The notes beneath the pieces were generated by a model. The model ran no database searches. It had not been told where the DNA came from and saw only the letters and a program-made list of their open reading frames with translations. This document shows positions 7,747 through 58,772 of a DNA stretch of 64,000 nt, in pieces. The stretch is taken from positions 1-64,000 of IMG/VR virus record IMGVR_UViG_3300035670_000110; one strand, 5' to 3'. A program made the translations under genes and the position numbers. This DNA comes from a virus. Numbering within the stretch: the stretch's first letter is position 1; each line of letters begins with the position of its first letter.

Positions 7747-7991
7747 CAGATGCTCCTCGGCGGGTCGCCAGGTGCTCCTTGAAAATCACATTTTATTCCA
7801 AAATCATTAACTATCTTTTTTAATTTAAAGAGATATTCCATTACCATCATTTGTTTTTCATTAGACAGAGCCATAATTTCATTTTCATATACCCTGAAGG
7901 CAATAAATCCAGGCATTTCTACAATATCTACAATAATATTATATGGAGCCTTGTTTTGCTTTATTGCTTTGTATATCGCTGGATCAATCAT
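7746..7991 (-). CDS. Hypothetical phage protein
   Basis: ORF in a tightly packed operon. Confidence 0.65.
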   Translation of the reverse strand: MIDPAIYKAIKQNKAPYNIIVDIVEMPGFIAFRVYENEIMALSNEKQMMVMEYLFKLKKIVNDFGIKCDFQGAPGDPPRSI

Positions 7992-8265
7992 TATCTTCTC
8001 CGTCTTTTATAAGATTAAGAACTCTTGTCCATACCTCATTACTTTTGTGAGAGTTTCTTACATTATCTAACTTTCCTTCATTTAAGAATATTCCACCCCA
8101 TACACCGTAAGATTCTGTTTTAACACCTGACTCAAAGCACTCTTTAATTACGGGACAGGATAAACACATTCTATCAATTTCTTTTGCTATCTCAGAATCG
8201 TTCTCATACTTGTCAAAGTATCTTTCAGTGTCTGTTCCGGCGCACAGCGCTTCACTCATCCACAT
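7984..8265 (-). CDS. whiB: WhiB-family Fe-S transcription regulator
   Basis: C-x22-CxxC-x5-C pattern (ALCAG...CLSCPVIKEC) and YGVWGG turn. Confidence 0.92.
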   Translation of the reverse strand: MWMSEALCAGTDTERYFDKYENDSEIAKEIDRMCLSCPVIKECFESGVKTESYGVWGGIFLNEGKLDNVRNSHKSNEVWTRVLNLIKDGEDND

Positions 8266-8470
8266 ATTTTACAGGAACTTTCCAGCCATTAATTCCGGGG
8301 AAATACCTTTTTACTGTGCCCCAACGACCATTACGAAACATTCCATTCTTCTTGTAGAATGCATCTCTAGATGGCTTCCAATCCATTATAGTCCAGCCAT
8401 CCCAAAATAAATTTGATTGCTCATCTACTATTTTATGAGCGGTATCATAGTCAATAAATTTGCTATCCAT
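8252..8470 (-). CDS. Conserved phage hypothetical protein (Trp-rich)
   Basis: LFWDGWTI...GMFRNGRWG...GWKVP. Confidence 0.7.
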   Translation of the reverse strand: MDSKFIDYDTAHKIVDEQSNLFWDGWTIMDWKPSRDAFYKKNGMFRNGRWGTVKRYFPGINGWKVPVKYVDE

Positions 8471-8796
8471 TATTCCTCACTTGTTGTATATACAATTTTT
8501 TTTATTCCATTAGATATTATGGAATCATAACATCTATCGCATGGACGACTATCCCTAGCCTGACCACGCCTATTTACTCTTGCAATATAAATTGTAGATC
8601 CATTAACATCTTTAGCCTTTTTAATAGCATCTATTTCTGCATGTACAGAGCAATCTGTTTTTATATGTTCCTTAGAAACTTTTGTAGGATGATTTCTTTC
8701 TTTATTATAACCAGTACTAAGAACTCTTCCGCCCTTAACAATTACAGAGCCATGCTTCATTCTACAAGATGATTGTGACGCCATATATAAAGCCAC
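8470..8796 (-). CDS. Cytidine/deoxycytidylate deaminase-family protein
   Basis: HAEIDA and PCDRC zinc motifs, HGSVIVKGGRVLSTGYN; true start uncertain because the frame is open further upstream. Confidence 0.88.
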   Translation of the reverse strand: MALYMASQSSCRMKHGSVIVKGGRVLSTGYNKERNHPTKVSKEHIKTDCSVHAEIDAIKKAKDVNGSTIYIARVNRRGQARDSRPCDRCYDSIISNGIKKIVYTTSEE

Positions 8797-9248: not shown

Positions 9249-9737
9249 TTAGTAGATATCTGGAAACTCTCCGTCAATAATCCATTCGTTAGTATTTATT
9301 TTTACTAACTCTATGCTGGTCCACTGAGCGGTTAAATAATTTTGGTCTGCAGAATTTAGTATAACTCCTGACTCTTCTATAAATTGTACACTACCTGCAC
9401 CACTTCTTACAACCTTTATTGAAGATCCTATATCTATATTTTCTGTATTATTATTTGGAATAATAATATTAACTGCGGAGGCAGAATTAGCAAGTAATAT
9501 TGAATTCTGATCGCTATTTAAAATCATATATGAAAACGATGAACTAGAGTCTGTTATTGAATCTACTTTTCTTGCATAAGAAAACTCTAAGTTACTTTCA
9601 TTAATTAAGTTTACCCAGGAACCAGAATATGCCATCCTAATAGTATTGTCTACATTATTAAAATATATTTCTCCATCTTCAAACAACTCAGGGTTGTCAG
9701 ATAAATTGACTACTTTTAGGGTGGAAACTAGTCTCAC
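9249..9737 (-). CDS. Virion/tail-fibre-type beta-rich domain protein
   Basis: GEIYFN..DN module plus IIPNN...IGSSIKVVRSGAGSVQF...ELVKINTNEWIIDG, a common phage fibre C-terminal module. Confidence 0.55.
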   Translation of the reverse strand: MRLVSTLKVVNLSDNPELFEDGEIYFNNVDNTIRMAYSGSWVNLINESNLEFSYARKVDSITDSSSSFSYMILNSDQNSILLANSASAVNIIIPNNNTENIDIGSSIKVVRSGAGSVQFIEESGVILNSADQNYLTAQWTSIELVKINTNEWIIDGEFPDIY

Positions 9738-10216
9738 AGAAATCTACCGCCCCAGACACCTTTATTAGAATTTACATATCCTGGTGGGATAACTGCTAAC
9801 CTACATTTTCCTTCCGCCTCAATGCTGTAGGAGAGAATCTGGCAGCCCAGTGAGCCATCATCTTTTTGATATACCAAAGAGCAGTTAGAGCATTTGACTC
9901 CAATAGAGGCATCCGAATTTTGAGCGGCAGTCTCATATCCTATCCATATTCCTGTACTCTCATTATCTAGAGGTCCATATTTTTCTGCAATAGAAACTAA
10001 AGAATCATGAAATTCTTTTTCTGGATCTGATAACTGTGAGTAAAGTCCATTATCAACCTTACTAATTTTCTTTGACTGTGATTCAGCGGCGTAGAGCGCC
10101 CTTTGCTGATCTAAGGCTTCTTGCCTAGTTGAATGAGTTCCGCGAACAGTACCATCTGGACCCACTACAGAGTATCCAGACTTACCACGGTAGTTCTGTC
10201 TAATATCGTATGGCAT
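9734..10216 (-). CDS. Putative head-associated protein with a HiPIP-like 4-Cys module and scaffold-like C-terminal peptide
   Basis: AGGAGG RBS; CSNC...C...GKC; ends KGVWGGRFL. Confidence 0.6.
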   Translation of the reverse strand: MPYDIRQNYRGKSGYSVVGPDGTVRGTHSTRQEALDQQRALYAAESQSKKISKVDNGLYSQLSDPEKEFHDSLVSIAEKYGPLDNESTGIWIGYETAAQNSDASIGVKCSNCSLVYQKDDGSLGCQILSYSIEAEGKCRLAVIPPGYVNSNKGVWGGRFL

Positions 10217-12171: not shown

Positions 12172-13809
12172 TCAATTTTTTATCATTGCTCTACCTATTT
12201 CAGGGAACCATAGACAATAAAGGTTTGATTCCTTGTAAGTCTTTATAGCATCTTCTGGTGTTTCTACCAACGGTTCTCCTGCGAGATTAAAACTAGTATT
12301 TAATAAAACGCCAACTCCGGTATTTTTTTTAAATTCTAATAATAATTGAAACAATGGCTCTGATTCGTCTTCTATAATTTGAATCCTACAGGTGTTGTCA
12401 ACATGCAGAACTCCAGGTATTTCTTTTGCAATATCTTTTGCGTCAGCATTTATTGTCATAAATTTATATCCGTCATTATTTTTTAAATAAAAGTACTTAT
12501 GAGCATCTTCTTCTAGACAAACTGATGCAAAAGGTCTATACCATTCTCTTTTCTTAATAATATTAATTAAATTTTTTGCATTGAGATTTCTTGGGTCAAA
12601 GAGTATAGACCTATGACCCAAGGCTCGGGGGCCAGCCTCCGATAGTTTATAATATATACAGACGGATTTTTGATCTAATAAAATATCTACTATGTTTGCA
12701 ATTTCTATTTTTTGGGTATCATCTTTCAACAAATCATAATTTTTTCCGTGAAAAAATAAATTATTAATTTTATTTATAGTTTTATCTTTAGTTAATTTTC
12801 TATAAGCCAGCATAGCAGAGCCAATGCTGTTTCCACTATCGTCTGCAATTGGCTCAAAATAAAAATTTATTTCTGGAAAATTTTTAATAAACCTAGAGTT
12901 AGCAACGACATTTAATCCATATCCTCCAGTTATGCATATATTCTTACAATTAGTTTTTTCCACTGCCTTTTTTATTAAAAATTCCATTGCATCTTCTGTT
13001 TGTTTTTGTACATGAAAAGCATAATCTGCATATAATTTGTAGTTTTTTTCATTAATATTTTTTGTTTTAACAAAATAATAGTTTGAATATATTGGTATTG
13101 AATTATTTTTTTCTATTTCAACGTCAATAAAATAATTTGAGTTTATTATGTTTGAATTATTTAAAATAAAATTTGGTATATTTGATTTTTCCCCGTAGGC
13201 AGAAAGGCCCATGGTTTTTCCATTTTCTAATGGACTTTCTCCGATCAATCCCGTTGCACTACAGTACATTCCGACTAAACCAATTCCAGCAAAAGAATCT
13301 ACTTCACAGTCTGGATATTTATTTAAAATTAATGGTTTAGACAAAGAGTTAAATATTTTTTTTTCAAAATTTTTATACACTGGTATGAAGTTATCTGGAT
13401 AAGATGCATAGAATATAGATTCTAATTCTTGTAGTCCATCTACATATGATCCAGCACCATCTGCAACAATAATGGCTGCATCCTCAAATCCACTATTATA
13501 AAAAGCCAAACTTGCGTGCTGCAAATGATGTTGGCTTGAAGCATCAATATTATTTTTTACATTAACATATTTTCCAACAATATGCACCCAGTCCTGAAAA
13601 TACTGATCATACGATCCTTCTGCGGCAGGGGCAAATATAAAAGATTCTACTTCTTTTAGATCTTCAACACCTTTTTGTAAAGAAAGTATTGGCCTATAGT
13701 CTCTTTTTTTCTTGCTTATTCTTTCCTCTTTTAGGAATACTTCAATATTGCCATCATTAATTATACATATGCTAGAGTCATGGCAGGGAGATATTCCTAA
13801 AAATCTCAT
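12172..13809 (-). CDS. Carbamoyltransferase (NodU/CmcH family)
   Basis: HDSS, EERISKKK, HHLQHA, ADGAG, GKTMGLSAYG, GGYGLNVVAN, DDSGNSIG, EAGPRALGHRS, KKREWYRPFA, HVDNTCRIQ, LNTSFNLAGEPLVET. Confidence 0.93.
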   Translation of the reverse strand: MRFLGISPCHDSSICIINDGNIEVFLKEERISKKKRDYRPILSLQKGVEDLKEVESFIFAPAAEGSYDQYFQDWVHIVGKYVNVKNNIDASSQHHLQHASLAFYNSGFEDAAIIVADGAGSYVDGLQELESIFYASYPDNFIPVYKNFEKKIFNSLSKPLILNKYPDCEVDSFAGIGLVGMYCSATGLIGESPLENGKTMGLSAYGEKSNIPNFILNNSNIINSNYFIDVEIEKNNSIPIYSNYYFVKTKNINEKNYKLYADYAFHVQKQTEDAMEFLIKKAVEKTNCKNICITGGYGLNVVANSRFIKNFPEINFYFEPIADDSGNSIGSAMLAYRKLTKDKTINKINNLFFHGKNYDLLKDDTQKIEIANIVDILLDQKSVCIYYKLSEAGPRALGHRSILFDPRNLNAKNLINIIKKREWYRPFASVCLEEDAHKYFYLKNNDGYKFMTINADAKDIAKEIPGVLHVDNTCRIQIIEDESEPLFQLLLEFKKNTGVGVLLNTSFNLAGEPLVETPEDAIKTYKESNLYCLWFPEIGRAMIKN

Positions 13810-14204
13810 TACTTAACCATTAATTTTGTTGATGTAACCTTAAATCCGTGTGCTCTTTCAATCACCATGTACTGATATGTTAAAAGACCCATTTTTTCTT
13901 TCAATTCTTTAATAACCAATTCAGCGTCTAACGTTGAACAGGTATATAAATCAAATTGGAGCAGTGCCGGATCTTGCTCATCCCAGATATGAAAAGCAAT
14001 GTGAGAGGTTTCAATCATCACCGCTCCGGTGATCCCTCTGTTTCCAGGAGCATCCACATATGATGCAAATGGACCCTGCACTATCTTCATTCCAATTTTT
14101 TCAACTAGGCTAGACAGCCAGGATATTGCATCTTCTGGGCTTTTGATTGGATTTTCTACATACCCGTTAAGAATAATTTGATTATGAAGAGGCATCTCAA
14201 ACAC
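13809..14204 (-). CDS. speD: Pyruvoyl-dependent S-adenosylmethionine decarboxylase-like protein (SpeD family)
   Basis: GITGAVMIETSHIAFHIWDE...FDLYTCS. Confidence 0.8.
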   Translation of the reverse strand: MFEMPLHNQIILNGYVENPIKSPEDAISWLSSLVEKIGMKIVQGPFASYVDAPGNRGITGAVMIETSHIAFHIWDEQDPALLQFDLYTCSTLDAELVIKELKEKMGLLTYQYMVIERAHGFKVTSTKLMVK

Positions 14205-14592
14205 TCATTCCATTGCACAGGTATCTTTCTGCCCCAACAATAATTGCAGCGGCAAATCTAGCACCTTGCTCATTGTCCATATTATTTTCAACTAGGGCAT
14301 AAGAAAGAGCATTTACTATATCATTTTGAGACATTCCGTTTGCATATCCTTCACAAACAATATTCCCAAGGTTAATAAGGTCACCGGGAGATGCTGAAGA
14401 TGCATAGACCCCACCGTTTTCTTTAACAAAAGAAACATATTCTGAGACACCAGAAACATTTCCATCATTCTGATTAATGTCCGGTGCTGGAACCTGCTCA
14501 GTTACTGTTACCACTGGAGCAGGTTGTGAATTTGTAGAGCATCCTACTAAAGCCACCATAGAAATTACAGCGGCCACAAAAATCTTTTTCAT
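14197..14592 (-). CDS. Lipoprotein, DUF732-like
   Basis: Signal peptide with lipobox LVGC, PVVTVT linker, LINLGNIVC...A..YLC. Confidence 0.65.
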   Translation of the reverse strand: MKKIFVAAVISMVALVGCSTNSQPAPVVTVTEQVPAPDINQNDGNVSGVSEYVSFVKENGGVYASSASPGDLINLGNIVCEGYANGMSQNDIVNALSYALVENNMDNEQGARFAAAIIVGAERYLCNGMSV

Positions 14593-14787: not shown

Positions 14788-14788
14788 G

Positions 14789-14860
14789 CTGGCATGGTAG
14801 GATTCGAACCTACAACCAATCGGTTAACAGCCGATTGCGCTGCCATTGCGCCACATGCCA
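14789..14860 (-). tRNA. tRNA-Asn (GTT), no encoded CCA
   Basis: TGGCATG/CATGCCA acceptor stem, anticodon arm ATCGG-CTGTTAA-CCGAT, T-loop GTTCGAATC. Confidence 0.93.
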
Positions 14861-14866
14861 ATTGCG

Positions 14867-14937
14867 CTGGAGAACAAGGATTCGAACCTAGACTAAATGA
14901 TCCAAAGTCATTTGTGCTGCCATTACACCATTCTCCA
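14867..14937 (-). tRNA. tRNA-Gln (TTG), no encoded CCA
   Basis: TGGAGAA/TTCTCCA acceptor stem, anticodon arm AATGA-CTTTGGA-TCATT, T-loop GTTCGAATC. Confidence 0.92.
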
Positions 14938-15046: not shown

Positions 15047-15406
15047 CTATTTACTTAAATCGAAGGGGGAACCTTCCCAAACCTTCTTCATTCTATTTAC
15101 TATTGCTCTAGACCAAGAGTATCCAGCGTCTCCGCCCCAGGCTTCCCACATAATTTTTCCATTAGATGGATATCCTTCTTCACCCGGAGAAAAACCCTTA
15201 CCCTTTTTATCTACTTCATGCCTAGAGAAATATGAATACATTCTCTTAACGGTATCTAGAGAGAGATTTTCTTTATTTGCAAGTTGATTTGCACGAGTCC
15301 AGCCAACAGATGTTCCTGCACCCGTAGCCTTTCCCTCTTCTCTCCATTTTAGTGCTCTTCTTGCCGCTGCTGCCATAGAATCAGTCGGCTTATACGTCTC
15401 TGCCAA
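15047..15406 (-). CDS. Phage head-associated domain protein
   Basis: YKPT..M...ARRAL.WR...GT.VGW.RA.QL...LS.DTVKRMYSYFSRHEVDK...PS.G.I.W.AWGGD.G..W domain, as seen in phage head proteins; probable TTG start at 15406 after GGGAG. Confidence 0.7.
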   Translation of the reverse strand: MAETYKPTDSMAAAARRALKWREEGKATGAGTSVGWTRANQLANKENLSLDTVKRMYSYFSRHEVDKKGKGFSPGEEGYPSNGKIMWEAWGGDAGYSWSRAIVNRMKKVWEGSPFDLSK

Positions 15407-15536
15407 GATCGGTAAACTCCCATCCATTTATAGATGTGCTATATGCGTAATAATGTCTTGTACATAAATACAGTTCAGTCTGGTGTGCCAGACCTCTACC
15501 AACTGACTGCGCTAAACAAAAATCACAAGTAGCCAT
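15390..15536 (-). CDS. Small zinc-finger-like protein (48 aa)
   Basis: Manual ORF MATCDFC...LYLCTRH...GRDV; TGATATAAT lies 5 nt upstream of the ATG. Confidence 0.6.
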   Translation of the reverse strand: MATCDFCLAQSVGRGLAHQTELYLCTRHYYAYSTSINGWEFTDLGRDV

Positions 15537-15541
15537 AACTG

Positions 15542-15550
15542 ATTATATCA
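15542..15550 (-). promoter_or_regulatory. Extended -10 promoter (TGATATAAT), probably leaderless
   Basis: 5 nt upstream of ATG 15536; no Shine-Dalgarno. Confidence 0.55.
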
Positions 15551-16067
15551 TTCCTAGTTTCGACGCATAATCATACATAGCGATGCCACACGCAGTGCCC
15601 ACGTTCAAACTTCTTACACTTCCAAGTTGTGGTATATAAACAATATCGTCGGCCAAAGATATTGCCGAATTACTAATACCCCTGCGCTCTTCTCCGAATA
15701 TCATAAAGGTGTTTTCTTGCCACTTATAATCTGTAATTGGAACAGCATTGGGGATATTATCTATAGCAACCCATCTCATAGATCTAATCTTTTCATCATT
15801 AGCCCATATTTCTTCTAGGCTAGGAGAATATTTAAGGTGCATATAGTTATGTGTTCCTACCGCTCCACGACGATCCCACTTCTTATCTCCAATTATCCAA
15901 ACCTCTTTTGCCATGAAAGCGTTTGCATTACGCATCCCCGTAGCCTTATTAAAATCTCCAGAAATATTTTCAAAGGCGGCAATGAAAGGAAGTCTTTTTT
16001 TATCAAGATCGGCCTTAATTTGATCTGTTTCCCATTCTTTATAGTAGTCAATGACGTTACGATTCAC
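15543..16067 (-). CDS. SpoU/TrmH-family (SPOUT) RNA 2'-O-methyltransferase
   Basis: ENISGDFN...MRNANAF, IFGEERRGIS, VYIPQLGSVRSLNVGTACGIAMY. Confidence 0.9.
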   Translation of the reverse strand: MNRNVIDYYKEWETDQIKADLDKKRLPFIAAFENISGDFNKATGMRNANAFMAKEVWIIGDKKWDRRGAVGTHNYMHLKYSPSLEEIWANDEKIRSMRWVAIDNIPNAVPITDYKWQENTFMIFGEERRGISNSAISLADDIVYIPQLGSVRSLNVGTACGIAMYDYASKLGMI

Positions 16068-16407
16068 CGTAATCCCCCTGAATATAAGAACCAGTTCCAT
16101 ATATTAAATACATCATAGATTTTTCCTCTTCTGACAAATCTTTAGCGTCTAGCCAGTTATCTGACTTATCATTTAAGTATATATGGGCCAGTCCATCATT
16201 GTCCATCATTAAATCTATATATCCCTTAAACCACAGGCTTCCTAGAATATCAGAATCCTGTATCCTCATGAATTCAACAAGTTCTGCCTGCTCTTCATAA
16301 AACAGGTCAGTAAATCTATATACTTCGTCACCGGCAATATTTTTTCCGGCTGGCTCAATATATCCCTTTTTTAAAAATATTTCTAAAATTTCATCATTTA
16401 AATCCAT
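16057..16407 (-). CDS. Hypothetical phage protein
   Basis: ORF in a packed operon. Confidence 0.65.
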   Translation of the reverse strand: MDLNDEILEIFLKKGYIEPAGKNIAGDEVYRFTDLFYEEQAELVEFMRIQDSDILGSLWFKGYIDLMMDNDGLAHIYLNDKSDNWLDAKDLSEEEKSMMYLIYGTGSYIQGDYGES

Positions 16408-16880: not shown

Positions 16881-18658
16881 ACCATTCCTATTGATTGAAT
16901 GTAATCATCTATATTTCCTCCATTATTATTTTTAGGAGGAACTATCATATTCTTTTCTGCTTCTGCTTTTCGTGAATCACGAATGAACTGCTTGTAGGTA
17001 TGAACCTCTATTTCTATCTCTTGAGTTTCTTTTTTTGTATTGGCTATGGCATTATAGATGCTTCCGCAAACGGCGTCAGATAGGTCCTTGCTTCCCTTTC
17101 TAGGGTGATCTACCTTGTCACGAATAATTCTTAACTGTAACAATTCATCAATCAACAGGGGGATGCTGGGTCCGATTATTCTTTCTTCACCAACTAACAT
17201 AGCCATGTCATCATAGTGTTTTTTTGCCACAGAAAGAGTTTCTGTCTCAATACCAATCATTCTTAATTCAGCCATGATGTCATGGGAGTTCCACCTATCA
17301 AAGGTTACCTTCTTAATATTAAACCCTCTAGATCTAAGGTCTACAATAAATTGTTTAACTTCAGAGAAGTCTACGGATTTATCTGAGGTGGGAGTCCACC
17401 ATCTTACGCAATCTACAGCCACTATCGGGCTTATCACATTGTGATTTAAAAAACTTTTAACGTGAACCCATCGCTCCACATGTGACATAGATACAGCACA
17501 ATGGTCATGCTTCTGCGCCAAATCGACATGGACATAGTATTCTTTTCCTTCTTGAGGAATAAACCAGTCTTTAAATCGACCTTCGTCGTCCACACCATTC
17601 ATTGGTTGATTAAAACATGTAATAATTTTTTCACGAGATTTGAAAAACGCATCCACTGCGTCTGCTGGCATACATGCAAATCTTCCAAGAGCATCTACAG
17701 GATTATTAAAAAATGATATTTTAAAATCTTCTATGGATCTTGTTGGATTAATATCCCAGGTTGGCCTTCTTAATGCAAAAACTTTAGGGTATCTATAGGC
17801 ATTAATATGATCTTCTTCCCAATGAATAGTAAATTCATTTTCTGGAACATTCTCAAGTTCTTCATCTAATTTAAAAGTGTGAGATCTTATTTCCGTTTCT
17901 TTGTCAGCAATAACTGATTCGTATCTTTGTTGAATAAAATCATTCTTATATCTAGGAAAAGAAAGCAGAACAACCTTGCCGAAGTCTGGGAATCGGGAAT
18001 CTACTGAGGCCCTATACATATCATAGATCGCTTGTCCAGTCTTTGCTTGCTCGTTACCACTAGTTGACACTGTACTAAATCCAGATATCTCGTCAAGGAT
18101 CACGCAAATAACATTATATCCCTCCCAAGACTCCCTTTCTGAGTGTCCTGAGTGACATGTAATAGATTTGTCAAATGATACACTTTGCGCTGTGATACTA
18201 TATTTTCCAACAAACCATGGAGAATCTTCTATTCTTTTTCTAAATCCCTTGAAAAATACATTCTTTGCCTGCTCTGAGTTAATAGCAATATTAATAATAT
18301 CTATTGAATCTCCTGGAGGCTTGCCAAAATATTTTGCAGGGTCTTTTAGGCATAGCAATAAATAAACTAAATAGGTAACAGATATGGTAGAAAGATAATC
18401 TTTCCCAGAACCCTTCCCAAGTTGAAGTATTACTTCGTTACATGTCTGACGATATCTTTTAAGCCCCTTTTCCTCTCCCATAAGATTGATTAAAGTTTCT
18501 TTTTTGTATATTTGAGTCATTGCTTTAATAGCCTGGTATTGATATTCAGACAACGGCGGTAGTTTTAAATAATTTTCACTAGTAACAAATTCTTCAATCT
18601 CTACTGGCTTTTCGTCAAACTCGTCCTCTTCTAGGGCAGAAAGAAAGTCGTCAAACAT
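16877..18658 (-). CDS. terL: Terminase large subunit
   Basis: Walker A LGKGSGKD, Walker B VILDE, coupling motif LLSFPR, nuclease motifs HVDLA, FDRWNS and KDLSDA. Confidence 0.92.
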   Translation of the reverse strand: MFDDFLSALEEDEFDEKPVEIEEFVTSENYLKLPPLSEYQYQAIKAMTQIYKKETLINLMGEEKGLKRYRQTCNEVILQLGKGSGKDYLSTISVTYLVYLLLCLKDPAKYFGKPPGDSIDIINIAINSEQAKNVFFKGFRKRIEDSPWFVGKYSITAQSVSFDKSITCHSGHSERESWEGYNVICVILDEISGFSTVSTSGNEQAKTGQAIYDMYRASVDSRFPDFGKVVLLSFPRYKNDFIQQRYESVIADKETEIRSHTFKLDEELENVPENEFTIHWEEDHINAYRYPKVFALRRPTWDINPTRSIEDFKISFFNNPVDALGRFACMPADAVDAFFKSREKIITCFNQPMNGVDDEGRFKDWFIPQEGKEYYVHVDLAQKHDHCAVSMSHVERWVHVKSFLNHNVISPIVAVDCVRWWTPTSDKSVDFSEVKQFIVDLRSRGFNIKKVTFDRWNSHDIMAELRMIGIETETLSVAKKHYDDMAMLVGEERIIGPSIPLLIDELLQLRIIRDKVDHPRKGSKDLSDAVCGSIYNAIANTKKETQEIEIEVHTYKQFIRDSRKAEAEKNMIVPPKNNNGGNIDDYIQSIGMV

Positions 18659-43568: not shown

Positions 43569-46500
43569 TTATAAACTCCTGCTATGGTTTCTTCTATTAT
43601 TTGATGAATTAATCATACTAGCAACCTTGTTAGCAATTGCTGTAGCACTCTTTCCACTAGCACCATTGATTATAATTTTAACATTTGATTTGCTTCCGCC
43701 ATAATTATTTGATACACCAGAAACATTTGATGGCATAACAGGAACTGAGAATTTCGGATCTTGCATGGATGACATTCCAAAATTACCAGCGTTAATTTGA
43801 TCTAACATTCCTCTACCGTACTTATTTACCGCACCAGCCTTTACCACATACTCTCCATTGGAGAGCATAGCGGGAATCATATCTGATCTTGGACCACCCC
43901 TCCCGGCAACAAAACCACCGGAAGCATATTTTGCAATAGGAGTACCTGCTCTGTCGAAGAACATTCTGTGCCAAGGACTGCTTAAAGAAGTATATTTAAC
44001 CGGACTTCCCGCTTCAATAACCTGATCGTTTCCGGCATATATTGCAATGTGCCTTCCCGATGGAGCCAGCCCAGTATTACTGTAATATAAAAGATCTCCA
44101 ATTTTTAATGATGAAGATGGAATTGGCGGCTGAGAACCGTCTCCAGGCCGTCCGCTAATTCTTCTTGCAACAATTCTAGAACTATTAATTTGACTTTCTG
44201 AATAAGATAAAAGACCATATTTTTTATAACCATCGGGAACGCCTAAATTATATGACATTGCTGTCAGACCAGAGCAGCCCCAAGAATCTGGACCATTTAC
44301 ATTAACAAGACTGTAAGGCTCTCCTAGTTGCTGTTTGGCGAATTCTAATGCTAAAACTCCATCTGGATTTGATCCAGAATCTTGTGATGGGGTAGTTGCC
44401 CCCCTATATCCCAAGAATGCAGGCCATAGATTGTTTGTGTTTGTTTCTGTTGAAACGCCCCACCAAGGTCTTCCATTATACTCACTCCAATCAAATCCGG
44501 CACTTGTACCGTTATAGTTTTTCAACATCGCCCATGGTAAAAATGTTTGACCTCTATTAGATACATGCTCGTATGCCATTCTAGAGTTATAATTTCCATC
44601 CAATAATTGAGAAATATTAAACCATGGCTGACTTCCATAAGATCTTTTATTAATTTGGAAAAGACCGTAGTCACCATTTCCTTCAGAATACATTGAAGGA
44701 TTATTAATATGATCAGAATATTTTCCTGGCTGACCGCCAGACTCTCTCATGGCAATGGTCCAGGCTAATCTATGTAAATCTCTTGGCCAGCCGCCAGCAT
44801 CTAAATATGTTAAAACATTTTGAGCGGTTGTTAATGTGTGACCTAATCCTGCTAGAACAGATTCATTAAATATCGGTGTTCCAGTTGCTCCGCCGTCTCC
44901 ATATGGTGTGCTAGGTGGACTTCCTGGCTCACCGGAACCTGCTCCATTATTAGGATCTTCTACAGGAGTCTCTCTTAATTGTCTTCCATATACAAATCTT
45001 GGATCGGCCTGACCGACAAGTCCACCTTCAGCAAACCCTGTTGCTTTTTCATTAATTTCAAGCAGCCTCATTTCCGCATTATCCTCAGACAATGAGGTGA
45101 TTAATCTAGATAAAGCAAGTGCCGCGCCTGTTCCTCCTAGTACTGTGCCAGTTCCTACAGCGGTTGTATAATATAAGGCCCCAGTTTCTACTTGATCTTC
45201 TGTTAGAGGGGAAAGACCATTCCTCGCTCTATTTGAATTTATCATTGGAACTATGTTATTACGGTATGGATATTGTATAGTTGATGAACCTAAATCTTTA
45301 CCAATTCTTAAAAGGCCAGCAGTTTTTTCTCCAATAGAAAGTTGATCTCCCCAATAAAATGGACTATTTTTATTAAAAGCATGTTTTGCTGAATTATATA
45401 AAAATGTTGCTTTAAATGATGGAGTATTTCCATAAGAGTTTCCTGGTACATATCCTTTAAAATATGGTACTACATTATGAGATCCAGGAGACACCCCAAT
45501 TTTTGAAAATAGTATAGACATCGTTCTTATCCGATTTGCTTCGGCGGCGGCCTCAAGAGATCCGTAGGTTCTTTCACTGGAACTTGCTGGCCATTGTTGA
45601 GCACCACGACTAAAAAGGTTGTTAAAGTCTAGAGCATGACCACCCTCATGTGCGGTAACACCCATAAGTTCAAAAATGTCTCCTGGGGTGGAATTAATTT
45701 GTGTTCCGGTATAAGGGTTATCGACCCCTCCCTGTAACTGATGTCCATTAAAAATTTGATCAACTACGTTATCCCAGGAAGATTTATTTACTACTGTTCC
45801 GGGGGCAGCAGGACCATAAAGTTGTGAAAGCATTGAATCCATTGAGGGATCTTTTCCAAAAATATAACCTTCTTCTGGAACAAAGTTTTTCATGCTCACT
45901 AGATTAGAGTGAGATCCCCAATATATATCTCTTTTAAGATTTTGCGCTTTATTATCATTATAAATAAAGTGGGACAAATATTTTCTATAAGCAGATTGAA
46001 TTTCTGGAGAAATATTAAGTCCGACATAATAAGGATTTATTCCTGGTGGCAATTCTTTTTCTGGAAGACTGTTTAAATAATTTATAAGAACTTCACTTTG
46101 ATCAACCCCTTCTTGATACTTTGGATCATTTCTATAAAGAAAGGGTTTTTCTGACTTTACTCCTGAAGAATAATTTCTCATGACCCCGGCTGTTTTAAAT
46201 CTACTGAGTAGTCCAGATATTCCTTTAGGGATTGGAATAGGAGCAAAACTAGCAGCAAATAAAGCAGCGTCTAAAGCAGCACGATCTGCGTAATCTCTTT
46301 CATATTCTTCCTGGGTAACTCCCATTACCCAGGATGGAAGGGAGAACTGGGCGCTGGTGTTTGATCTAATTCCATATGGGGTTGGCCTAGTAGATGCTAA
46401 TGTTCTTACTCCCCCCAGACCTAATAAAGATAGAGTTGCTGAAAATCCTTGTCTAAGCCCATTCCACATCTCTCCAAGAATGCTTTCTGCAACAGGGTCT

Positions 46501-49500
46501 GGCCTAACAATGTTATAATCTAAATTCTGGGGAACTCCATAATTTATGAGTCCGGTTCCAGCAGTAACAGGTTTTGTGGTAGGAGCAGGAGGTGGAGTAG
46601 TAGATTTTGAATACCCATAATATGGTTGACGCATTACTTGTCCGGCATAACCACCTATTTGGTTTGCAGTATTATTAGAAATTTGTCTTTGTTGAGATTG
46701 TTGTTCTAATCTATCTGCGGATACATATCCACCTTCCGCAAATCTGGCCTGATTGATGGAATTCATCATTCCTACGCCGTACTTTTTAACAGATGATGCT
46801 TTTACAACATATTCACCATTAGAAAGTCTGGCTGGGATGGAATCAGATTTAGGACCTCCTGGTCCAGAAACATAACCTCCTGAATTAAATTTTACATCAT
46901 ATCTTTGAGTCGCGGGGTTCCATATATATCTCTTTCCATCGGGACCTGTAATTTCATTCCCACTATATGTTGTTTGCCAATTTGGAAGGAATCCTGAGCC
47001 TCCGCCAGAAGGAGTATTATTATTATTCTGTCTAGGTGGTGGGGGTGAGTAACCTGGAGGCTGTGTTTGTCCAGGGCTTCTATAATCTTCTGTCTGCGGT
47101 GTTGAAACAGTTTGTATCCAATTTAAAATAGTTTGTAGAGGATCTTCTCCCGTCCTGGGCCTTCCAGTTACATCTCTTCCTCCCATGAGGGCGAAGTAAT
47201 CTCCAGAAATAAGTGACGCTGCCTCTCTTTGAGCCGCTTCAATATCTACAGTCAATCCGCTTTCTAGTTGCTTTCTTATAGCATCATCAAGGAATCTTTG
47301 ATATCTAAGTTTAAGAATAATTGACATTTCTTCCATGTATCTTTTGCCAAATTCTTCCCCTAGTCTTTTAGTGACTTCTTTCGCACTCGTGATTTGCCCA
47401 GCATCATTTTGGCTTTGAATAACGCGGAGGTCAGCCAACTTAGTAGTTTGTTCGTTAATAGTGTCTCTAAAAGATTTTCTCTCTTCTCGCTGCCTTCTCT
47501 TAAAATTCCTTAAACGCCTTTCATATAATTCTTCTGCTTTATCTGCTGCTTCCTGTTCAGCCTCAATTTGATCATTTATTAAATCGATTCTTGTTTGGGT
47601 ATCTTTTTCAAATTGTTCTTGTTTTTCTTGCTCTGTTTCTATTGTTTTATCTATAGAATCAATTTCTCTGTCCCGAGCCTCTTCGATACCTTTAATTTGT
47701 TCATCGTATGCAAATTGTTGAGCATCTTGAGACATTTGTTGTCTATCTTGCAAGAATCCAAAAACATCTCCAGATGCAAGTTTTTCAAGGGCTGATAGAG
47801 CAGTTTTTCTTTGATTAGAATAAAAGTTATCTACTTTCTGTCTCTTTTGAATAGAATTAATATAGTTTTCCGTTGATTCATTTATTCTATCTTTTTCTTC
47901 ATTTAACCCTTCGATCTTTTCTTCAAATCTTTCTCTTTCTTCTTCTGCAGCATCAGAGATGGCCTCTTTTTGTTTTTCAAGACTTTCTATTGTTTTTTCA
48001 CTATCTCTGACAGATTGATTCCTTAGTCTTCTTTGCTTTCTTTCATATCTTTCATACTGTCTATCTAGTTTTTCTAAACCTTCTTGAGAATTTTGAATTA
48101 ATTCTTCTGTGAAACCTATTTGTTTGTCAATTAAACTTCCAGCACTCTCTGTGAGTCCAGCAGCAATATCATTAATTTGATCTTGTAATTCTGCTCTGTT
48201 GGTTGTAATGACAATTTCTGCTTCTAGTTTTAAGGGTCCTCCAACCATTAAAGCGTCTATAATATCCTGTATACTCATCCCCGCAGATAAAGCCTTTGAT
48301 ACCTGAAGGGCCAATTCTTCATCCATACCAATCATTGCAGCAAGAATAGCCCCTCTTACAGGATCTATTTCATTAATAAAATCTTTAATTGGCTGTGGGT
48401 CAAAGGCCATCGCTGTAGATTCTTTTGCTATTTTAATAATTTGATCCATGGCCTCCATGGTTTCTTTGGGAGCCTCTTTAAAGTTTTCAAACATTATTTC
48501 TGTAATTTTTACAATACTTTCTGCGCTAATGTCGGCCATTTCCTCTATATTGGTTTGCATTTGATGGATTTGTCTTGTAACATTGGCAGCATTATCTATA
48601 GTCTCTTGCATTTTATCTTTATCAAAAATGTTTTCAAAGGCTTCGAAGTCAGTTGCTGCTCTAAGAATTTGCAGAGGAATGCTGAGATTAGTTATAAAAC
48701 TTGTTAATCCTGTACTAAGATCTCCAACCGAATTTTCCAGATTTTGAGCAATTACACCAGAAAATCTTTCTGCACCATTGAGAGTATTCTCTAGTTTATC
48801 AAGTCCTTGTTGAGTAACATCTATGGTTAATTTTTGTTTTTCTGGGTCAAACAGGTTAGCCATAGCACTGGCCAACTCTTCCGCTGTTTTTTGTTCAAAC
48901 AAGCCATTCTTTAATCCTATTGCGTAGGCTTGTCCTCCAGTATAACCCGCTTCAGCGGCTATCGCCTTTACTGCATCAACAGCCTGCTCTTCTGAGAGTC
49001 CGCTTGTAATCATTTTATTAAATGCTAGGGCTAATTCTCTAGAACCGGCTTCTGCTCCACCATATTTTATTTTTTCAATCAGGTTTCCGTAATCTTGTTG
49101 AACTGCTTTTTTAAGATTTTCATCTATTTCGCCAATTTCTCCCACCTGACTTGAGGCTTGCTTAAGTTTTTCTGTAACATCAGTTATCTGTATACCAAAA
49201 AACTCTGCTGTTTTTGCAGGATCTTCAAATGATGCAACGGCTCTTTTTCTTGCTTCTTCCGCCGCTTTTTGGTACATCATATAGCCGCCGACAGTGGTTG
49301 CGAGCGCTGCGGCAATTCCTATGCCAATAGGACCGCCAAGCATGGAAACTGCGCCGCCTGCTCTAAAAAGAAGATTTCCTTTTGATGCAGCGCCTGTTGC
49401 TAAATTGGAAGTTGGTCCAATAGCCGCCTTTGATGCTTGCATCTTTGTTCCTAGGCTTCCAAGGCCAAGGAAATTCCCCATCACATTCTTTCCGCTAAAC

Positions 49501-52500
49501 ATTTGCATCATAGCGGCTGCGCCCATTACAGCCCCGGAAAGAATTCCTAGTTTCATTGCTAAATCATTTGAAGCCCCACCAGCCATACTCATACTTCCGA
49601 CAAGCATTGATGATGCAAAGGCAATGTTCATCAACCCCATGCCTTTCATCATTTGCGGTTGATTTTCAGCGGCCTGGCGGGAGGATGCCAGAGACTCCTG
49701 CGGCCCTCCAGTTTGAGTTGGGCTATTCATTAAAGCGGTCCATCTTTGTTGAAATGCTTGTGATGTAAGGTCTGGAGTTTTTATTTTAATGGGAGAAACA
49801 GACCCATCTCTATTAATCATCGCCCCATTGTCTGCATACATGGGCTTCGGGATCATGACTTCATTGGGCATTACTCTTAGCATTGGGCCGCGAGGAGTCA
49901 TTACAAACGGTCTTGGGCCTGGTCCAGATGGACGCTGCATGGATGGAGGAACTGCACCTGGACCAACAATTCCTGGTCTTCTCCCCGAACTTCTAGCAGG
50001 TGGTATTGGAGTTGTGCCCATTACCTGTGATTCTGTTAACGCTATAGATCTTCTGGCGGCGGCGGGGATATCTCCACCAGCCGCCTTAATCGCTTGAGCA
50101 ACATTAGTAGCAATCGGAAGTTCTCTAGGCAAAAGCCTCCCTCCGCCAGTCAGCCTTTCATCTATTATTGCTTTAAACAAAGGTGCCCAAATTCTTTTTG
50201 TGGGTCCGTCTTTACCCCAGATATTTTTGTTATCTGGCTGATCTAGCATAGATCCTATAATTTTTTCCATCAATCTCAACTGTGACGGTGTTTTTGGATG
50301 TCTAACTTCTATATCACCTGTTAGTGGATCTATTTTAAGAAGAGAGGGTCTTGAATCTCCCCTTCTTTGTATTTCTGAAATTATATGTCTCCCGGCATTG
50401 CCTCGGGTCAGATTTTCCAATGCCTGATTTTCTGCGCCAGATGAAAGTAAAAGGTTTGCTGGATCAAAATACTTTACGCCACCACGAATATCTTTTTCAT
50501 AATGGGCCAAGTGTACTTTTGTTGCATCTCTTAATTGTGTATCGTTTTCAAAAGAGATTCCTGCTCTTCGTGCAATTTCTTGCACCACCTCTGCCATTCT
50601 AATCTTCTGTGCTTCATGAACTAAGGCGTCTCTCATTTTATCGGGGGTCGATGTTTTATGCCCTCCACGACCAGCGGCAGGTTCGACAATATCTCCAAAG
50701 GCATATCCACGAACCTCACCACGATTCATTGCTCTTAAAAATTCAACGTTTCCTCTGGCGGCTTCTTTTCTTACAACAAATTCGCCTGGCTCAAGGAGGG
50801 CTGGAACTTTGTCCCCTCCGCCGTAACCGCCTGGAACTTTTTCTGGACTGGTAGACCCCATCTGTCTTCTTATAACAGTCGGTGCCCGTCCAGCGGGAGC
50901 AAGTGATCCGGGCGCAAAGAGACCGGGGTTGGTTTTCATTAAATATCCTAAAGATCCTGAATAAGCAGACATCACACTTACTAATCTTTTAAGGGCAGCC
51001 TCTTGTGTCAGAAATGATGTTGTTAAATTATCAACGCCCAGCCTGGCTGCCATAACGTCGGCGGTAAGTAATTCAAATTTTTCAAATCTCAATCCTGCTA
51101 TTTTTGCACCCATTCTAACTATCATCATGCTGAATTTAATTCCATTAGCAATAAGGTTTCCGAATAAACCGACAAGCATGACTACAGGTCCTGCTAAAGC
51201 AGTTAATAAGATCGCATACTTACTAAAGTTTTTTACCGGCTCTGGAAGTGCCTGAAAGAATTCCATAAAACTCTTAATTCCCCCACCAATACTAGAAAGA
51301 ACTGGAATAAGAGTCTCTGTTAGCAGATTTCCAAGTGGAATTAAAGAGTTTTTCAAATTTTCAATAGTTCTTTGAAATCTCATTGAAGATGATTCTTGTA
51401 AAGCCTTTAATTCTTTATTTGCAATTCCGGCCAATTCTGTACTGCTTGCAGAGGCAAGTTCCATAACAGAAAGAGTTTGAGAACCTTGTCGGCGGAGGTT
51501 GGCAAAAAGAGCCGCCATACGAGCAAATTGATATTTTCCAAAGACTTTTTCAAGAACTTGTGCTCTAGAAAAATCATCAAGTCCTTGCAGGGCATCTTGC
51601 AGCCCAAAAATCATAGGCAGCAATTCCCCTCTACCGTTTTCAATAATATTTTCTAGGGAAACTCCAAATCCTGCTGCTACTTCTTTTGCCTGTTTCGTAG
51701 GATTGATTAATCTACCAAGTCCAGATTTTAGAGCGTTTGCAGCCTCACCCGCAGAAACGCCTCCTTCGCGCATGGCAACAAGCAGGAGTGCCATATCTTT
51801 AATGTCTCCTCCAAGAGCCTGAATGACAGGGCCAACTCTTGGAATGGCTCCTGCTAAATCCTGAAGGTTGGTCGATGTTTGATTTTCTACGGCATTCAAG
51901 AAGTCAATAGACTCTGCCAATTCATTGGTATTTAGTTTAAATGCATTTTGAATTGACAGGGTGGCACGCATTGCCTCTTGTCTTTCAACTTCACCTAAGA
52001 CAGATAATCTTGTCGTTTGTCTTACAGATGAAAGAAGTTCTTCTCCCTCTTTACCCGTTTGAGCAATATCTGCGGCCAGGGCTGCTGTTTCTTTTGCAGC
52101 AATTCCATAAGAAGAACTAATTTCATATGCGAGTTGTTGAACACTGTCGCGCATTTTTTTAGTAGAATCTTCTACTGTATTAACAAGATCTGCTCCGTAA
52201 ACTTTTTCAAACCTAGTTAATTCTTTATCAATTTCGCGGAATTGTTTTGACACAAGTGCGGTAAACATGACCAACGGAAGGGTGAAGCCTACCATCAACT
52301 GGCGACCAGTCCACTGAGTGTTTTTACCAAAGTTTAGAAGTCTTTCACTTCCCCCGCGAACTAATTCGTTAAAAATAGAGAATTTTTGAGACGCCATAGC
52401 AGCAGAAGTGCCCATTGCTGACAAGGCTGTTGGAGTAAGAAGAGCACCAGTGGCAGCGCCGCCAGCAGTGCCCCCCATAGGAACCAGCATAGATTGTTGC

Positions 52501-53607: not shown

Positions 53608-54384
53608 TCAGAAGATTCTGTCGATGATCTTACCATAAGCGGCATTACCATCGGGGGCAACTAAGCCAGCGCCAGTAGCAGGCATAACTCGGAAGTTAAC
53701 GGGGAAGACGGTAGCATCGTCACGACGAACGCCAACGCCAACTGCCTCTACAGAAACTGCACGATAGAGCATATAAATTCTCTCTGCCTTCTTACCTGCG
53801 CCACCAGATTCGGCAACTGAGGTTGGAGCAGAACCTACGAAGCAAACGGAGCGCTCTACGGGAGCGATACCCAAAGAACCACCATTTAGATGAAGTAGAT
53901 TTTGCACCTGTCCTACTGCTGAACCAGAAGCATAAACTGCTGATGCTCCTGCGGTTCCCAGAACGTTAGTAGCGCCGTCTGCTGATGCAGTAAGGTTGTA
54001 GGACTGTCCAAGATCTGTACTCTGGAAGTCTCCAGTAGCACCTGTGGCTCCACCGATAGCAACATACATATTTTCTAATGTTGCCTCTGTGAGGCTGGTT
54101 GCCACTGTAACTCTTTGAGAAGTCTTGAATAGTCTTGCGGTATCAAGGAGTTGGTCAACCATGACATCATTGAAGGTAGGCTCAATGTTTAGAGTTACAC
54201 CCTCCATGGTGTAGCCTAGGTGATACCAGTCACCGTCGGGTACAGAAACTACGTTAGTAGGAATCTGAGCGGAAACTGTTGAAGAACTTACATTAATCTT
54301 GGTATTTTCTTGTCCTGCTTTGCCAGCATATACAACTGCTGCGCCAACGATAATATTTTTTGCATTAAAGTCTCTTGCGGCCAT
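53608..54384 (-). CDS. Major tail (tube) protein
   Basis: NIIVGAA, LGYTMEG, VDQLLD, TSLTEATLEN, FPVNFR; GGAGG RBS. Confidence 0.88.
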   Translation of the reverse strand: MAARDFNAKNIIVGAAVVYAGKAGQENTKINVSSSTVSAQIPTNVVSVPDGDWYHLGYTMEGVTLNIEPTFNDVMVDQLLDTARLFKTSQRVTVATSLTEATLENMYVAIGGATGATGDFQSTDLGQSYNLTASADGATNVLGTAGASAVYASGSAVGQVQNLLHLNGGSLGIAPVERSVCFVGSAPTSVAESGGAGKKAERIYMLYRAVSVEAVGVGVRRDDATVFPVNFRVMPATGAGLVAPDGNAAYGKIIDRIF

Positions 54385-54454
54385 TTATTATTTTCACCTC
54401 CTTGGAGCATTAAAATAAAAACGCTTCCTCACAATTATGTTACCATGTAAGAAA

Positions 54455-54949
54455 TTATTTTGTGTACTCATAAGTTAGTTTTAAACAAGTAATAAACTTG
54501 GGTTTAAAACTATCTATTCTTTTTTCATCTGCTATATAAGAGTCTTGATCTACTGTAATATATTTAAACTTTATTGTTGGGCTTGATGAAAGAAGATGGT
54601 TGTTAACTTCATTAGCACTTTCATCAAATTTTTCTAGAGCGTCAACAATGTAATTTTTTAGATAAAATATTTGAGGTAAATCTCCGACAATAATATAATC
54701 TGCCTCTTCTTTTTGAAGTGGCCAAAATGTTCCTGCTTTTGGCAAAAACATATAATCATATAGGATAAACGGCATTGTTGCTGAGTCTGGGGCTAGATTT
54801 TCACTGACCGGGAAAAATGGTTTAAATGTATAGTTAGATGCGTTCCAAACAACACTTGCTGCTGCAGGCTGACCTGAAACAGATCCACTCACTAAATCCC
54901 ATAAATAATTGTTTATGTGAACAATGGCAAGTTCTGTTGGATTAGACAT
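54455..54949 (-). CDS. Tail terminator / neck protein
   Basis: Position directly upstream of the major tail gene. Confidence 0.6.
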   Translation of the reverse strand: MSNPTELAIVHINNYLWDLVSGSVSGQPAAASVVWNASNYTFKPFFPVSENLAPDSATMPFILYDYMFLPKAGTFWPLQKEEADYIIVGDLPQIFYLKNYIVDALEKFDESANEVNNHLLSSSPTIKFKYITVDQDSYIADEKRIDSFKPKFITCLKLTYEYTK

Positions 54950-58232: not shown

Positions 58233-58772
58233 TTAGTTAAATAGATCTGCGGAACTGAGGAAGCGTCCGCCCCATAATGATTTCTTCATTACGGGTTGCT
58301 CTGGGATACTATTTTCTAGTTCACCAGACTTCTTAATTGCTGTCTCTTCTTCTACAGATTCAACTCTGCTTGCAATTTCTGTAGCAGCGTTATTGAGATC
58401 AGCCAAACTCTTAGTTACCTCTTCGTATTTTGCTTGAAGTTGCCCAACTTTTTCATCGACAGCCTTTGCCAACTCAAGAACAGCGCTTGTAATTTTATCA
58501 AATGACTCTGTGCTTGACTCAACTGACTTTGTTAGGGCCTCTTCCACAAATGACTTAACTTCGCCTAAAGCCTTTTCCATGTCAAAAACTTCTGAGGAAG
58601 TGTCTTCTGATTCGGCTTCTCCAGCCTCAACAACATCAGATTTAGCCATTGCTAGTGCCTCATTAACAACGTCCTCTATAGTTTCTTCTACTTCAAACTC
58701 AACCTCTTCTGAAGTTTCGTCTACAGCCTGGGCGGTGTCAAGTTCTTCATGGCTTGTTTCGTTGTCAGCCAT
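58233..58772 (-). CDS. Probable separately initiated scaffold protein (in-frame internal start)
   Basis: GAAGGAGGT-GTTGAA-ATG inside the protease ORF, giving MADNETSHEE... (179 aa). Confidence 0.65.
   Translation of the reverse strand: MADNETSHEELDTAQAVDETSEEVEFEVEETIEDVVNEALAMAKSDVVEAGEAESEDTSSEVFDMEKALGEVKSFVEEALTKSVESSTESFDKITSAVLELAKAVDEKVGQLQAKYEEVTKSLADLNNAATEIASRVESVEEETAIKKSGELENSIPEQPVMKKSLWGGRFLSSADLFN

Follow-up and report, generated by a model that had tools for sequence, protein, structure and literature searches.

A C-terminal peptide common to the protease-scaffold and to small accessory proteins of an uncultured lake phage: a probable capsid-targeting tag

The C-terminal peptide and the proteins that carry it

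The window analysed here covers the initial 64 kb of a virus record of 88,608 bp (IMG/VR record IMGVR_UViG_3300035670_000110), the whole of which yielded 106 open reading frames (ORFs). Its subject is a short C-terminal peptide found at the end of a small protein of 160 amino acids (aa), called cargo A in the following, at the end of the prohead protease-scaffold of the same phage and, in a related form, at the end of a second small protein, cargo B. The genes concerned, together with the parts of their products (M1, M2, M3 and M5 being recurring modules), are the following:

9734-10216, minus strand: cargo A, the 160-aa tagged protein, made of M1, M2 and the C-terminal tag (ATG start; 88 homologs; alignment A1)
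10082-10216, minus strand: M1, N-terminal beta-beta-beta-alpha domain of cargo A in the AlphaFold2 (AF2) model, residues 1-45 (MPYDIRQNY...QQRALYAAE)
9773-10045, minus strand: M2, Cys4 domain of cargo A, residues 58-148, with C109-x2-C112-x12-C125-x12-C138; weakly similar to high-potential iron-sulfur proteins (HiPIPs)
9737-9766, minus strand: C-terminal tag of cargo A, NKGVWGGRFL, residues 151-160 (W155 and G157 at least 90% conserved in A1)
15047-15427, minus strand: cargo B, a 126-aa tagged protein, made of an M5 module of phrog_2859 type (E 2e-38; 1,323 homologs) and a tag
15050-15088, minus strand: C-terminal tag of cargo B, KKVWEGSPFDLSK, related to the scaffold tail
58233-60437, minus strand: prohead protease-scaffold fusion, 734 aa (Pfam Peptidase_S78, phrog_9427; alignment A2)
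59898-60437, minus strand: S78 prohead serine protease domain, residues ~1-180 (PF04586, 31.5 bits, cutoff 21; phrog_9427 head maturation protease, E 1.3e-119)
59535-59690, minus strand: Hva1_TUDOR insert (M3) of the scaffold, residues 250-301 (PF11160, E 6.7e-10)
58785-59105, minus strand: DUF5824-like insert of the scaffold, residues 445-551, with SYDTDLLPKENP at its end (E 3e-9 in an alignment to the DUF5824 region of protein P0352)
58236-58286, minus strand: C-terminal tail of the scaffold, KKSLWGGRFLSSADLFN, residues 718-734 (W722, G724, F726 and L727 invariant in A2)

Cargo A ends in NKGVWGGRFL (...YVNSNKGVWGGRFL, followed by the stop) and the protease-scaffold ends in ...VMKKSLWGGRFLSSADLFN, its tail being directly followed by the stop codon at 58233-58235. 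The six residues WGGRFL are identical in the two proteins, whose genes lie 48 kb apart. When the two proteins were compared by BLASTP, the tail was the sole match, with 7 of 9 residues identical; both ORF ends and this tail-only match agree with the original prediction of a six-residue C-terminus shared by otherwise unrelated proteins.

To assess the contribution of chance, the 6-mers common to the last 20 residues were recorded over 2,000 shuffles of the genome's 106 ORFs. A 6-mer common to the ends of any two ORFs appeared in 5.6% of the shuffles, and one having the scaffold as a partner in 0.2%; because of this latter figure, a chance origin of the shared tail is unlikely. The sole other terminal 6-mer shared in the real genome belongs to two adjacent paralogs. 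At the DNA level, the 18 nucleotides coding for WGGRFL differ between cargo A and the scaffold at 5 positions, every one of them synonymous. Therefore, the identity of the hexapeptide is maintained at the protein level, and these same differences rule out a recent DNA duplication of the tail. In the whole genome the tail is found on three ORFs, namely the scaffold, cargo A and cargo B, while across 21 contigs, whose genomes are related, 16 tag-like strings fall within the last 20 residues of an ORF against 2.26 expected (p = 3e-11), 2 of the 16 lying in ORFs that are probably spurious.

On the scaffold side, 593 relatives were found in IMG/VR, the best 80 were kept, and 69 of those have an ORF reaching the stop codon. 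Among these complete ORFs, 68 of 69 close with W-x-G-x-F-L plus 5-7 aa, as WGGRFL (42), WGGHFL (10), WSGSFL (6), WQGHFL (4), WQGSFL (2) or singleton variants (4), and the sole exception is a truncated 313-aa ORF. The M3 insert, which likewise occurs in cargo proteins, is present in some scaffolds of A2 and missing from others. The tail, here in the form KWGG[RH]FL, extends to cultured phages of Streptomyces (Stanwilliamsviridae), with proteases at 42-48% identity that end in KWGGRFLGLSDLQ in Blueeyedbeauty and in KWGGHFLSVSDIR in Enygma.

Specifically for cargo A, homologs were taken from a large protein collection, and a tag was scored when W-x-[GDNSE]-x(1,2)-[FI] lay in the last 24 residues. 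The linker between M2 and the tag ranges from 0 to ~25 residues and is often acidic; its variability places the tag outside the fold. In agreement, the last 11 residues are modelled as disordered and free of helix (predicted local distance difference test, pLDDT, 42), in a model with a mean of 64.7 that reaches 82-88 for residues 1-30 and 76 for residues 31-40 of M1 and is weak elsewhere. For cargo B, the pattern W-x-[GDNSE]-x(1,2)-F was sought in the last 24 aa. The original prediction had named conservation of the motif among homologs as a test, and the outcome bears it out: the tag is present in 73 of the 88 cargo A homologs and in 109 of the 120 cargo B homologs listed out of 1,323, several of the remaining 11 listed having near variants of it.

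A different account would make of the likeness a recombination leftover, or a chance match to the G-V-W-G-G turn of WhiB-type proteins, with no function attached. The phage does encode a WhiB (7984-8265, minus strand) with an internal GVWGGIFL that resembles the GVWGGRFL of the tag, and cargo A is Cys-rich as well. The tail is nevertheless kept in most homologs of both small proteins while its codons have diverged, and it is confined to polypeptide ends; in addition, cargo A has no Pfam Whib match and a different Cys spacing, and the scaffold bears the tail yet lacks these four cysteines. We therefore regard a functionless resemblance as disfavoured and very improbable.

As for the WhiB peptide itself, the WhiBs of related contigs read GVWGG[IV][YF]L, and the string is probably the ordinary WhiB G-[VI]-W-G-G turn, though its likeness to the tag over W-G-G-x-[FY]-L is odd. 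A WhiB-like reading of cargo A was also considered and was ruled out on the missing Whib match, the Cys spacing and the variable linker before the tail.

With regard to the nature of M2, C109, C112, C125 and C138 are invariant in A1 and follow the C-x2-C...C...C order of HiPIPs. The Pfam HIPIP profile (PF01355) scores 15.8 bits on M2, under the cutoff of 22, and matches 5 of 22 family members, with a best E of 0.018; a PDB profile search matched PioC at E 0.14 with the Cys residues aligned. A Foldseek comparison of the 160-aa model with the PDB gave no match below E 1, the HiPIP of R. marinus ranking third at a non-significant E of 1.5. From these weak signals, M2 is probably an iron-sulfur (Fe-S) domain. 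No PHROGs family matches cargo A, and a search of the ESM Atlas with it returned viral hypothetical clusters only.

Modules and the ends of polypeptides

The ORFs of 80 IMG/VR loci and of whole contigs were surveyed for the domains of these small proteins. Five modules recur, alone or fused in many orders. They are listed below, with counts of unique sequences, among related sequences and genomes, in which the module is terminal or internal in its polypeptide and is or is not followed by a tag:

M1: the N-terminal domain of cargo A
M2: the Cys4 domain; terminal, 86 with tag and 7 without; internal, 0 with tag and 51 without
M3: Hva1_TUDOR; terminal, 9 with tag and 2 without; internal, 0 with tag and 35 without
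M4: a module ending in LPEDW
M5: phrog_2859 type; terminal, 122 with tag and 6 without; internal, 2 with tag and 7 without

The tag goes with whichever module closes the polypeptide and almost never with an internal one. Where the modules are split the tag follows each of them: in contigs G004 and G010, M1 and M2 are separate genes with a tag of their own (...W-D-G-A-F-I-E-K-G-Y-N and ...K-F-W-G-G-S-F-[LF]-K, respectively), as in the M1-only gene at 47645-47836 of G010. Locus L061 consists of M1 and a tag alone (64 aa), and L063 of M2 and a tag alone. In G000 the peptide stands on the scaffold, cargo A and cargo B, and up to three tagged proteins are found in relatives.

Two further peptides were noticed inside fused proteins. 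In the fused cargo ORFs of L018, L027-L062 and G006 (17485-18411), the linker between M1 and M2, E-W-E-G-K-P-L-Y-D-x-L, resembles the M5-type tag K-V-W-E-G-S-P-F-D-L and may be the relic of a tag that predates the gene fusion. In L029, KSIWSSFDPR is internal, downstream of M3.

The distribution of the tail over polypeptides bears also on the proposal that it is a recognition or cleavage site of the prohead protease, or a degradation signal, and has no part in loading. In the scaffold as well as in most tags, a K or R is conserved 2-3 residues upstream of the W, and the T4 targeting peptides are cut off by the prohead protease, according to excerpts of PMC7411985. A cleavage site would have no need to lie at the extreme C-terminus, however, where cutting would free only 6-15 residues, and the occurrence of one tail per free polypeptide, with none on internal modules, suits an address better. 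We consider this proposal improbable.

The same modules are also found joined to prohead proteases. A single 764-aa ORF (L076, on contig G005, 53% G+C) contains Peptidase_S78 (E 4.6e-13), M5, M3, M1 and M2. Actinomycetia phage DSL-LC01 has M2 at the end of a protease ORF of 855 aa, with a scaffold-like ORF and the capsid gene coming next, and has the M5 domain in an adjoining ORF of 607 aa. The 812-aa protein P0352 is homologous to the protease-scaffold of the window in its protease part (49% identity over 149 aa, E 3e-38), in the DUF5824-like region and in its tail, ...GSVWDGYFIP (E 0.002), and carries M5 and M2 internally. The scaffold of the window has itself two such inserts, M3 and the DUF5824-like region. 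Since in other phages the modules are fused to the prohead protease or to the protease-scaffold, they can be regarded as head-associated.

A profile search with M2 over 1.84 billion representatives returned 706 relatives at E <= 0.001, the best 150 of which were examined. An S78-like N-terminus is present in 26 of these 150, including all 19 proteins of at least 1,951 aa, in which M2 follows the protease at about residues 320-430. A Pfam scan of 13 of the best 150 detected Peptidase_S78 in 7, ArdcN plus MPTase-PolyVal in 3 and UvrD helicase in 3; the three giants scanned all have UvrD helicase, and P0276 and P0317 have ArdcN and MPTase-PolyVal. Giant M2 proteins with ArdcN, MPTase-PolyVal and UvrD have the architecture of the 'polyvalent proteins' of phages, which are predicted, in excerpts of PMC5512222, to be packaged in capsids and delivered.

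Some terminal sequences deserve mention beside these proteins. Of the best 150 M2-bearing representatives, about 18 close with ...YDSxD[AS]DLLP[KRV]..., and the window's scaffold has the corresponding SYDTDLLPKENP internally, at the end of the DUF5824-like insert; such an end might be a further terminal signal or a site cut by the protease. In DSL-LC01, a 244-aa ORF annotated 'high potential iron-sulfur protein' (L001:1158-1892) adjoins the protease genes; no Pfam match to it was found at E up to 0.01, and five M2-bearing representatives close with the tail of this ORF (...CEALDFKCAASRTCDAW...). The main text of the DSL-LC01 paper mentions neither iron-sulfur proteins nor the maturation protease, although its supplement could differ.

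The fixed place of M2 directly after the protease in the giants could hint at an assembly role. Cargo A might accordingly be an alternative or auxiliary scaffold which competes for the shell and tunes assembly or size, rather than being cargo, on the principle of CpmB, a second protein with the C-terminal capsid-binding end of a scaffold (excerpts of PMC5644958). Against this, cargo A has no coiled coil or evident dimerisation domain and is modelled by AF2 as small globular modules, several unrelated tailed modules occur per genome, and the genes are the phage's own and lie far from the head genes. An auxiliary scaffold seems to us quite improbable.

Co-variation, head genes and neighbourhood

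If the tail imitates the end of the scaffold, tag and scaffold could be expected to change together, and the original prediction had named this co-variation as a further test. The ends found on single contigs are:

G000, G001 and G002: scaffold [KR]KSLWGGRFLSSA[DE]LFN; M2 tag WGGRF[LA]; M5 tag KK[VM]WEGSPFD[LI]
G003, G004 and G010: scaffold IRK[SG]IWSGSFL; M2 tag KFWGGSF[LF]K
G003 and G010: M5 protein with NKSIWSGVFF, replacing the usual W-[QE]-G-S-P-F
G006, G007 and G014: WGGRFL scaffolds; fused cargo with M5-type tails

In the WSGSFL lineage, the change of R to S in both the scaffold and the M2 tag, together with the KSIWSG match of M5, is one joint change at the level of the lineage, as read from these sequences. 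Co-variation of tag and scaffold end is thus seen in this lineage only.

Two other cases were noted. The cargo protein P0071 and the scaffold of L230 both end in WKGSFL. P0071 has no close relative in IMG/VR, where one locus was kept (contig G002, 46% identical), and the contig of L230, G018, which is 47% complete, has no tagged ORF. On contig G016, the scaffold ends in KSIWQGHFLGVNNI and an unrelated Cys-rich ORF of 176 aa in KSFWGNFFLPVD. This latter ORF (L241:13640-14170, corresponding to G016 93640-94170, plus strand) is of low complexity, with repeated CC-x-D/K-C motifs, and is unrelated to M1-M5.

The protease-scaffold gene of the window is located between the portal and the major capsid genes:

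57086-58204, minus strand: major capsid protein, HK97 fold (phrog_1623, E 1.9e-63), the proposed receptor of the tails
60468-62093, minus strand: portal protein (Pfam Phage_portal, E 5.5e-36), an alternative candidate receptor

The AF2 model of the major capsid protein (predicted template modelling score, pTM, 0.61) matches in Foldseek the capsid proteins of P4, phiRSA1, T5 and HK97, with E from 1.7e-13 to 1e-10. Its residues 1-42 are disordered in the model, and by analogy with 80alpha (excerpts of PMC5644958) this N-terminal segment is a candidate receptor of the tails. A complex prediction for the capsid protein (alignment A3) and cargo A (A1), run without controls, scored 0.00, a value that bears on the contact in neither direction.

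The tail could also be an address whose receptor is the portal, the protease domain or the scaffold core instead of the capsid protein, the cargo being enclosed all the same. The portal, protease-scaffold and capsid genes are adjacent, our data point to no particular receptor, and in T4 it is the prohead core, not the shell, to which the capsid targeting sequences bind, according to excerpts of PMC7411985. In the solved cases, however, the C-terminal ends of scaffolds contact the N-arm of the capsid protein (80alpha, excerpts of PMC5644958), and the disordered N-terminus of the window's capsid protein could be such a contact site. We judge a receptor other than the capsid protein to be unlikely, while leaving it some weight.

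The window has a G+C content of 37%, and almost all of its genes lie on the same strand. A WhiB gene and a DUF732 gene are present and point to an actinobacterial host. The remaining genes of interest are the following:

8470-8796, 12172-13809, 13809-14204, 14197-14592 and 15543-16100, minus strand: genes around those of the two cargo proteins, for a dCMP (deoxycytidine monophosphate) deaminase, a carbamoyltransferase, an AdoMet (S-adenosylmethionine) decarboxylase, a DUF732 protein and a SpoU-type methylase
9249-9737, minus strand: an ORF of 162 aa, overlapping at its start with the stop of the cargo A gene; over ~95-130 residues at its C-terminus it matches the terminal parts of families of minor tail, fibre and virion structural proteins (phrog_8780, E 2.7e-12)
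14788-14860 and 14866-14937, minus strand: two tRNA genes, for Asn(gtt) and Gln(ttg), located between those of cargo A and cargo B
43569-52847, minus strand: a 3,092-aa ORF among the tail genes, which presumably codes for the tape measure protein

A probable scaffold-like address for the capsid interior

Taken together, the conservation of the tail, its restriction to the ends of polypeptides, its independence of the fold and the fusion of the modules with proteases are observed. The original prediction was that the phage appends a mimic of the scaffold end to accessory proteins. It is upheld as far as a conserved terminal element goes, which is independent of the neighbouring fold, stands on several unrelated small modules and is carried by modules that are head-associated through their fusions to the prohead protease; it does not extend to all relatives, some of which lack the tail. 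On balance, we consider the tail a probable capsid-targeting tag, C-terminal and similar to the scaffold end, that would load accessory proteins into the prohead.

Specifically, the last ~10 residues of cargo A (K-x-hydrophobic-W-G-G-R-F-L) would be a free and flexible address peptide, copying the invariant W-x-G-x-F-L element at the end of the scaffold. By analogy with the scaffolds and proteases of 80alpha, P22 and HK97, the scaffold would hold the inside of the assembling HK97-fold shell by this element, and the tagged protein would be enclosed in the prohead through the same shell contact. The modules M1-M5 would then enter the head in two ways, either as a covalent part of the prohead protease or scaffold or as a free tagged protein, and might later be ejected into the host with the DNA or have a role in assembly.

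Several observations weigh against this reading. A W tail is missing from 15 of the 88 cargo A homologs, from the M1+M2+M3 fusions of G008 and G009, which end in ...ISLNLFR..., and from an M2+M5+M4 protein of G020, which ends in LPEDWKKSMSKSANYSDSRFMKYM; about 25 short M2-only representatives stop directly after M2. The M5 tags (W-E-G-S-P-F-D) are one inserted residue apart from the W-G-G-R-F-L of their own scaffold. In the M5 proteins of G003 (L099:14281-14919, minus strand) and G010 (53842-54495), a stretch of ~100 aa, very acidic and of low complexity, comes after the tag NKSIWSGVFFP, which therefore is not strictly terminal there. Outside the WSGSFL lineage, the variable positions of tag and scaffold do not track each other, and no second independent joint change was found among the 21 whole contigs compared, IMG/VR having ~553 cargo-bearing and ~593 scaffold-bearing records. 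When ten contigs, 24-80% complete, were picked by their scaffold alone, a further tagged ORF was present in one of the ten only (G016), and a search with A1 found the module in one (G020), in a copy devoid of tag. In Streptomyces phage Blueeyedbeauty, whose genome is complete, the scaffold is the sole tagged ORF. In addition, the terminal and internal counts come from related sequences and genomes and so exceed the number of independent events, the genes of the cargo are 40-48 kb away from the head genes, amid metabolic and regulatory genes and outside the head module, and the source is an uncultured lake phage known here from its sequence alone.

We put forward more tentatively, as a possibility to which we give less than even weight, a wider scheme for freshwater actinophages. 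A portable C-terminal h-W-x-G-x-F peptide (h, hydrophobic) of ~10 residues might address proteins in general to the inside of the head; a virion protein of the polyvalent, protease-anchored kind might have been split into free tagged modules, including a probable Fe-S protein, that are enclosed and delivered with the DNA; and unrelated proteins, such as the Cys-rich ORF of G016, might have joined them by gaining the tag. Such a scheme would amount to a natural, sequence-defined and transferable loading system for the capsids of tailed phages, comparable to encapsulin peptides.

Encapsulin cargo-loading peptides are short and C-terminal, are carried by diverse cargo, often metal proteins, and bind the inside of an HK97-fold shell. 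The encapsulin shell of T. maritima ranks 35th among the structural matches of the window's capsid protein. Unlike in encapsulins, the shell here is that of a tailed phage of 88.6 kb with portal, protease-scaffold and tail genes, the capsid gene standing between the genes for protease-scaffold and portal and those for head-tail proteins, and the peptide differs in sequence and is common to a scaffold.

The HK97 gp4 protease is reportedly brought into the prohead by its C-terminal tail (an observation attributed to Duda et al. 2013). In SPN3US, a C-terminal propeptide of gp245 takes the prohead protease into the prohead (excerpts of PMC7411985). Those tails serve the protease itself, whereas here the tail is also found on separate proteins. 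A short terminal peptide sends the non-structural proteins IPI-III and Alt of T4 and DarB of P1 to the prohead, and can do so for foreign proteins (PMC9024508 and PMC7411985, both in excerpt). As in those phages, one short terminal peptide is found on unrelated proteins of the same phage; the T4 and P1 sequences are, however, N-terminal and not like the end of the scaffold, while the tag described here is C-terminal and scaffold-like. Another difference is that the T4 peptide binds the core and is removed by the protease, as stated in excerpts of PMC7411985.

A close parallel in design comes from SaPI1 CpmB and the 80alpha scaffolding protein, which have in common a C-terminal 'helix-and-hook' with an RIIK motif, according to excerpts of PMC5644958. 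As in our case, a second protein bears the C-terminal peptide of the scaffold, and CpmB uses the same contact on the HK97-fold capsid protein (same excerpts). CpmB is, however, a satellite protein that redirects capsid size, with a helical motif of unrelated sequence, whereas here the carriers are the phage's own small globular modules, several proteins per genome, with a W-x-G-x-F tail modelled as disordered. The tag, K-x-h-W-G-G-R-F-L with no AF2 helix, shows no RIIK helix-and-hook. Similarly to polyvalent proteins (Iyer et al. 2017), relatives of M2 stand behind an N-terminal prohead protease together with ArdcN, MPTase-PolyVal and UvrD; unlike them, the window protein is free and consists of M1 and M2 only, the tag replacing the covalent link to the protease.

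The principle of terminal loading peptides is thus already known from T4, P1, SPN3US, HK97, CpmB and encapsulins. Our literature search for C-terminal scaffold-like targeting tags of phages, which covered articles and not their supplements, returned only T4, P1, SPN3US, 80alpha and encapsulins. To our knowledge, terminal peptides addressing proteins to the head are known from a few model phages only (T4 and P1), where they are N-terminal, and we know of one satellite protein, CpmB, that copies the end of a scaffold. A C-terminal scaffold-like tag on the phage's own interchangeable modules, linked to protease-anchored polyvalent proteins, appears to be new.

The scaffold tail is shared by cultured Streptomyces phages, and the idea is therefore open to bench testing. 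If correct, it would provide a short natural tag to be tried for loading proteins into HK97-fold capsids. It would also make the virion cargo of uncultured phages predictable from sequence alone, connect the giant protease-anchored polyvalent proteins with small free proteins, and show how phages choose the contents of their capsids.

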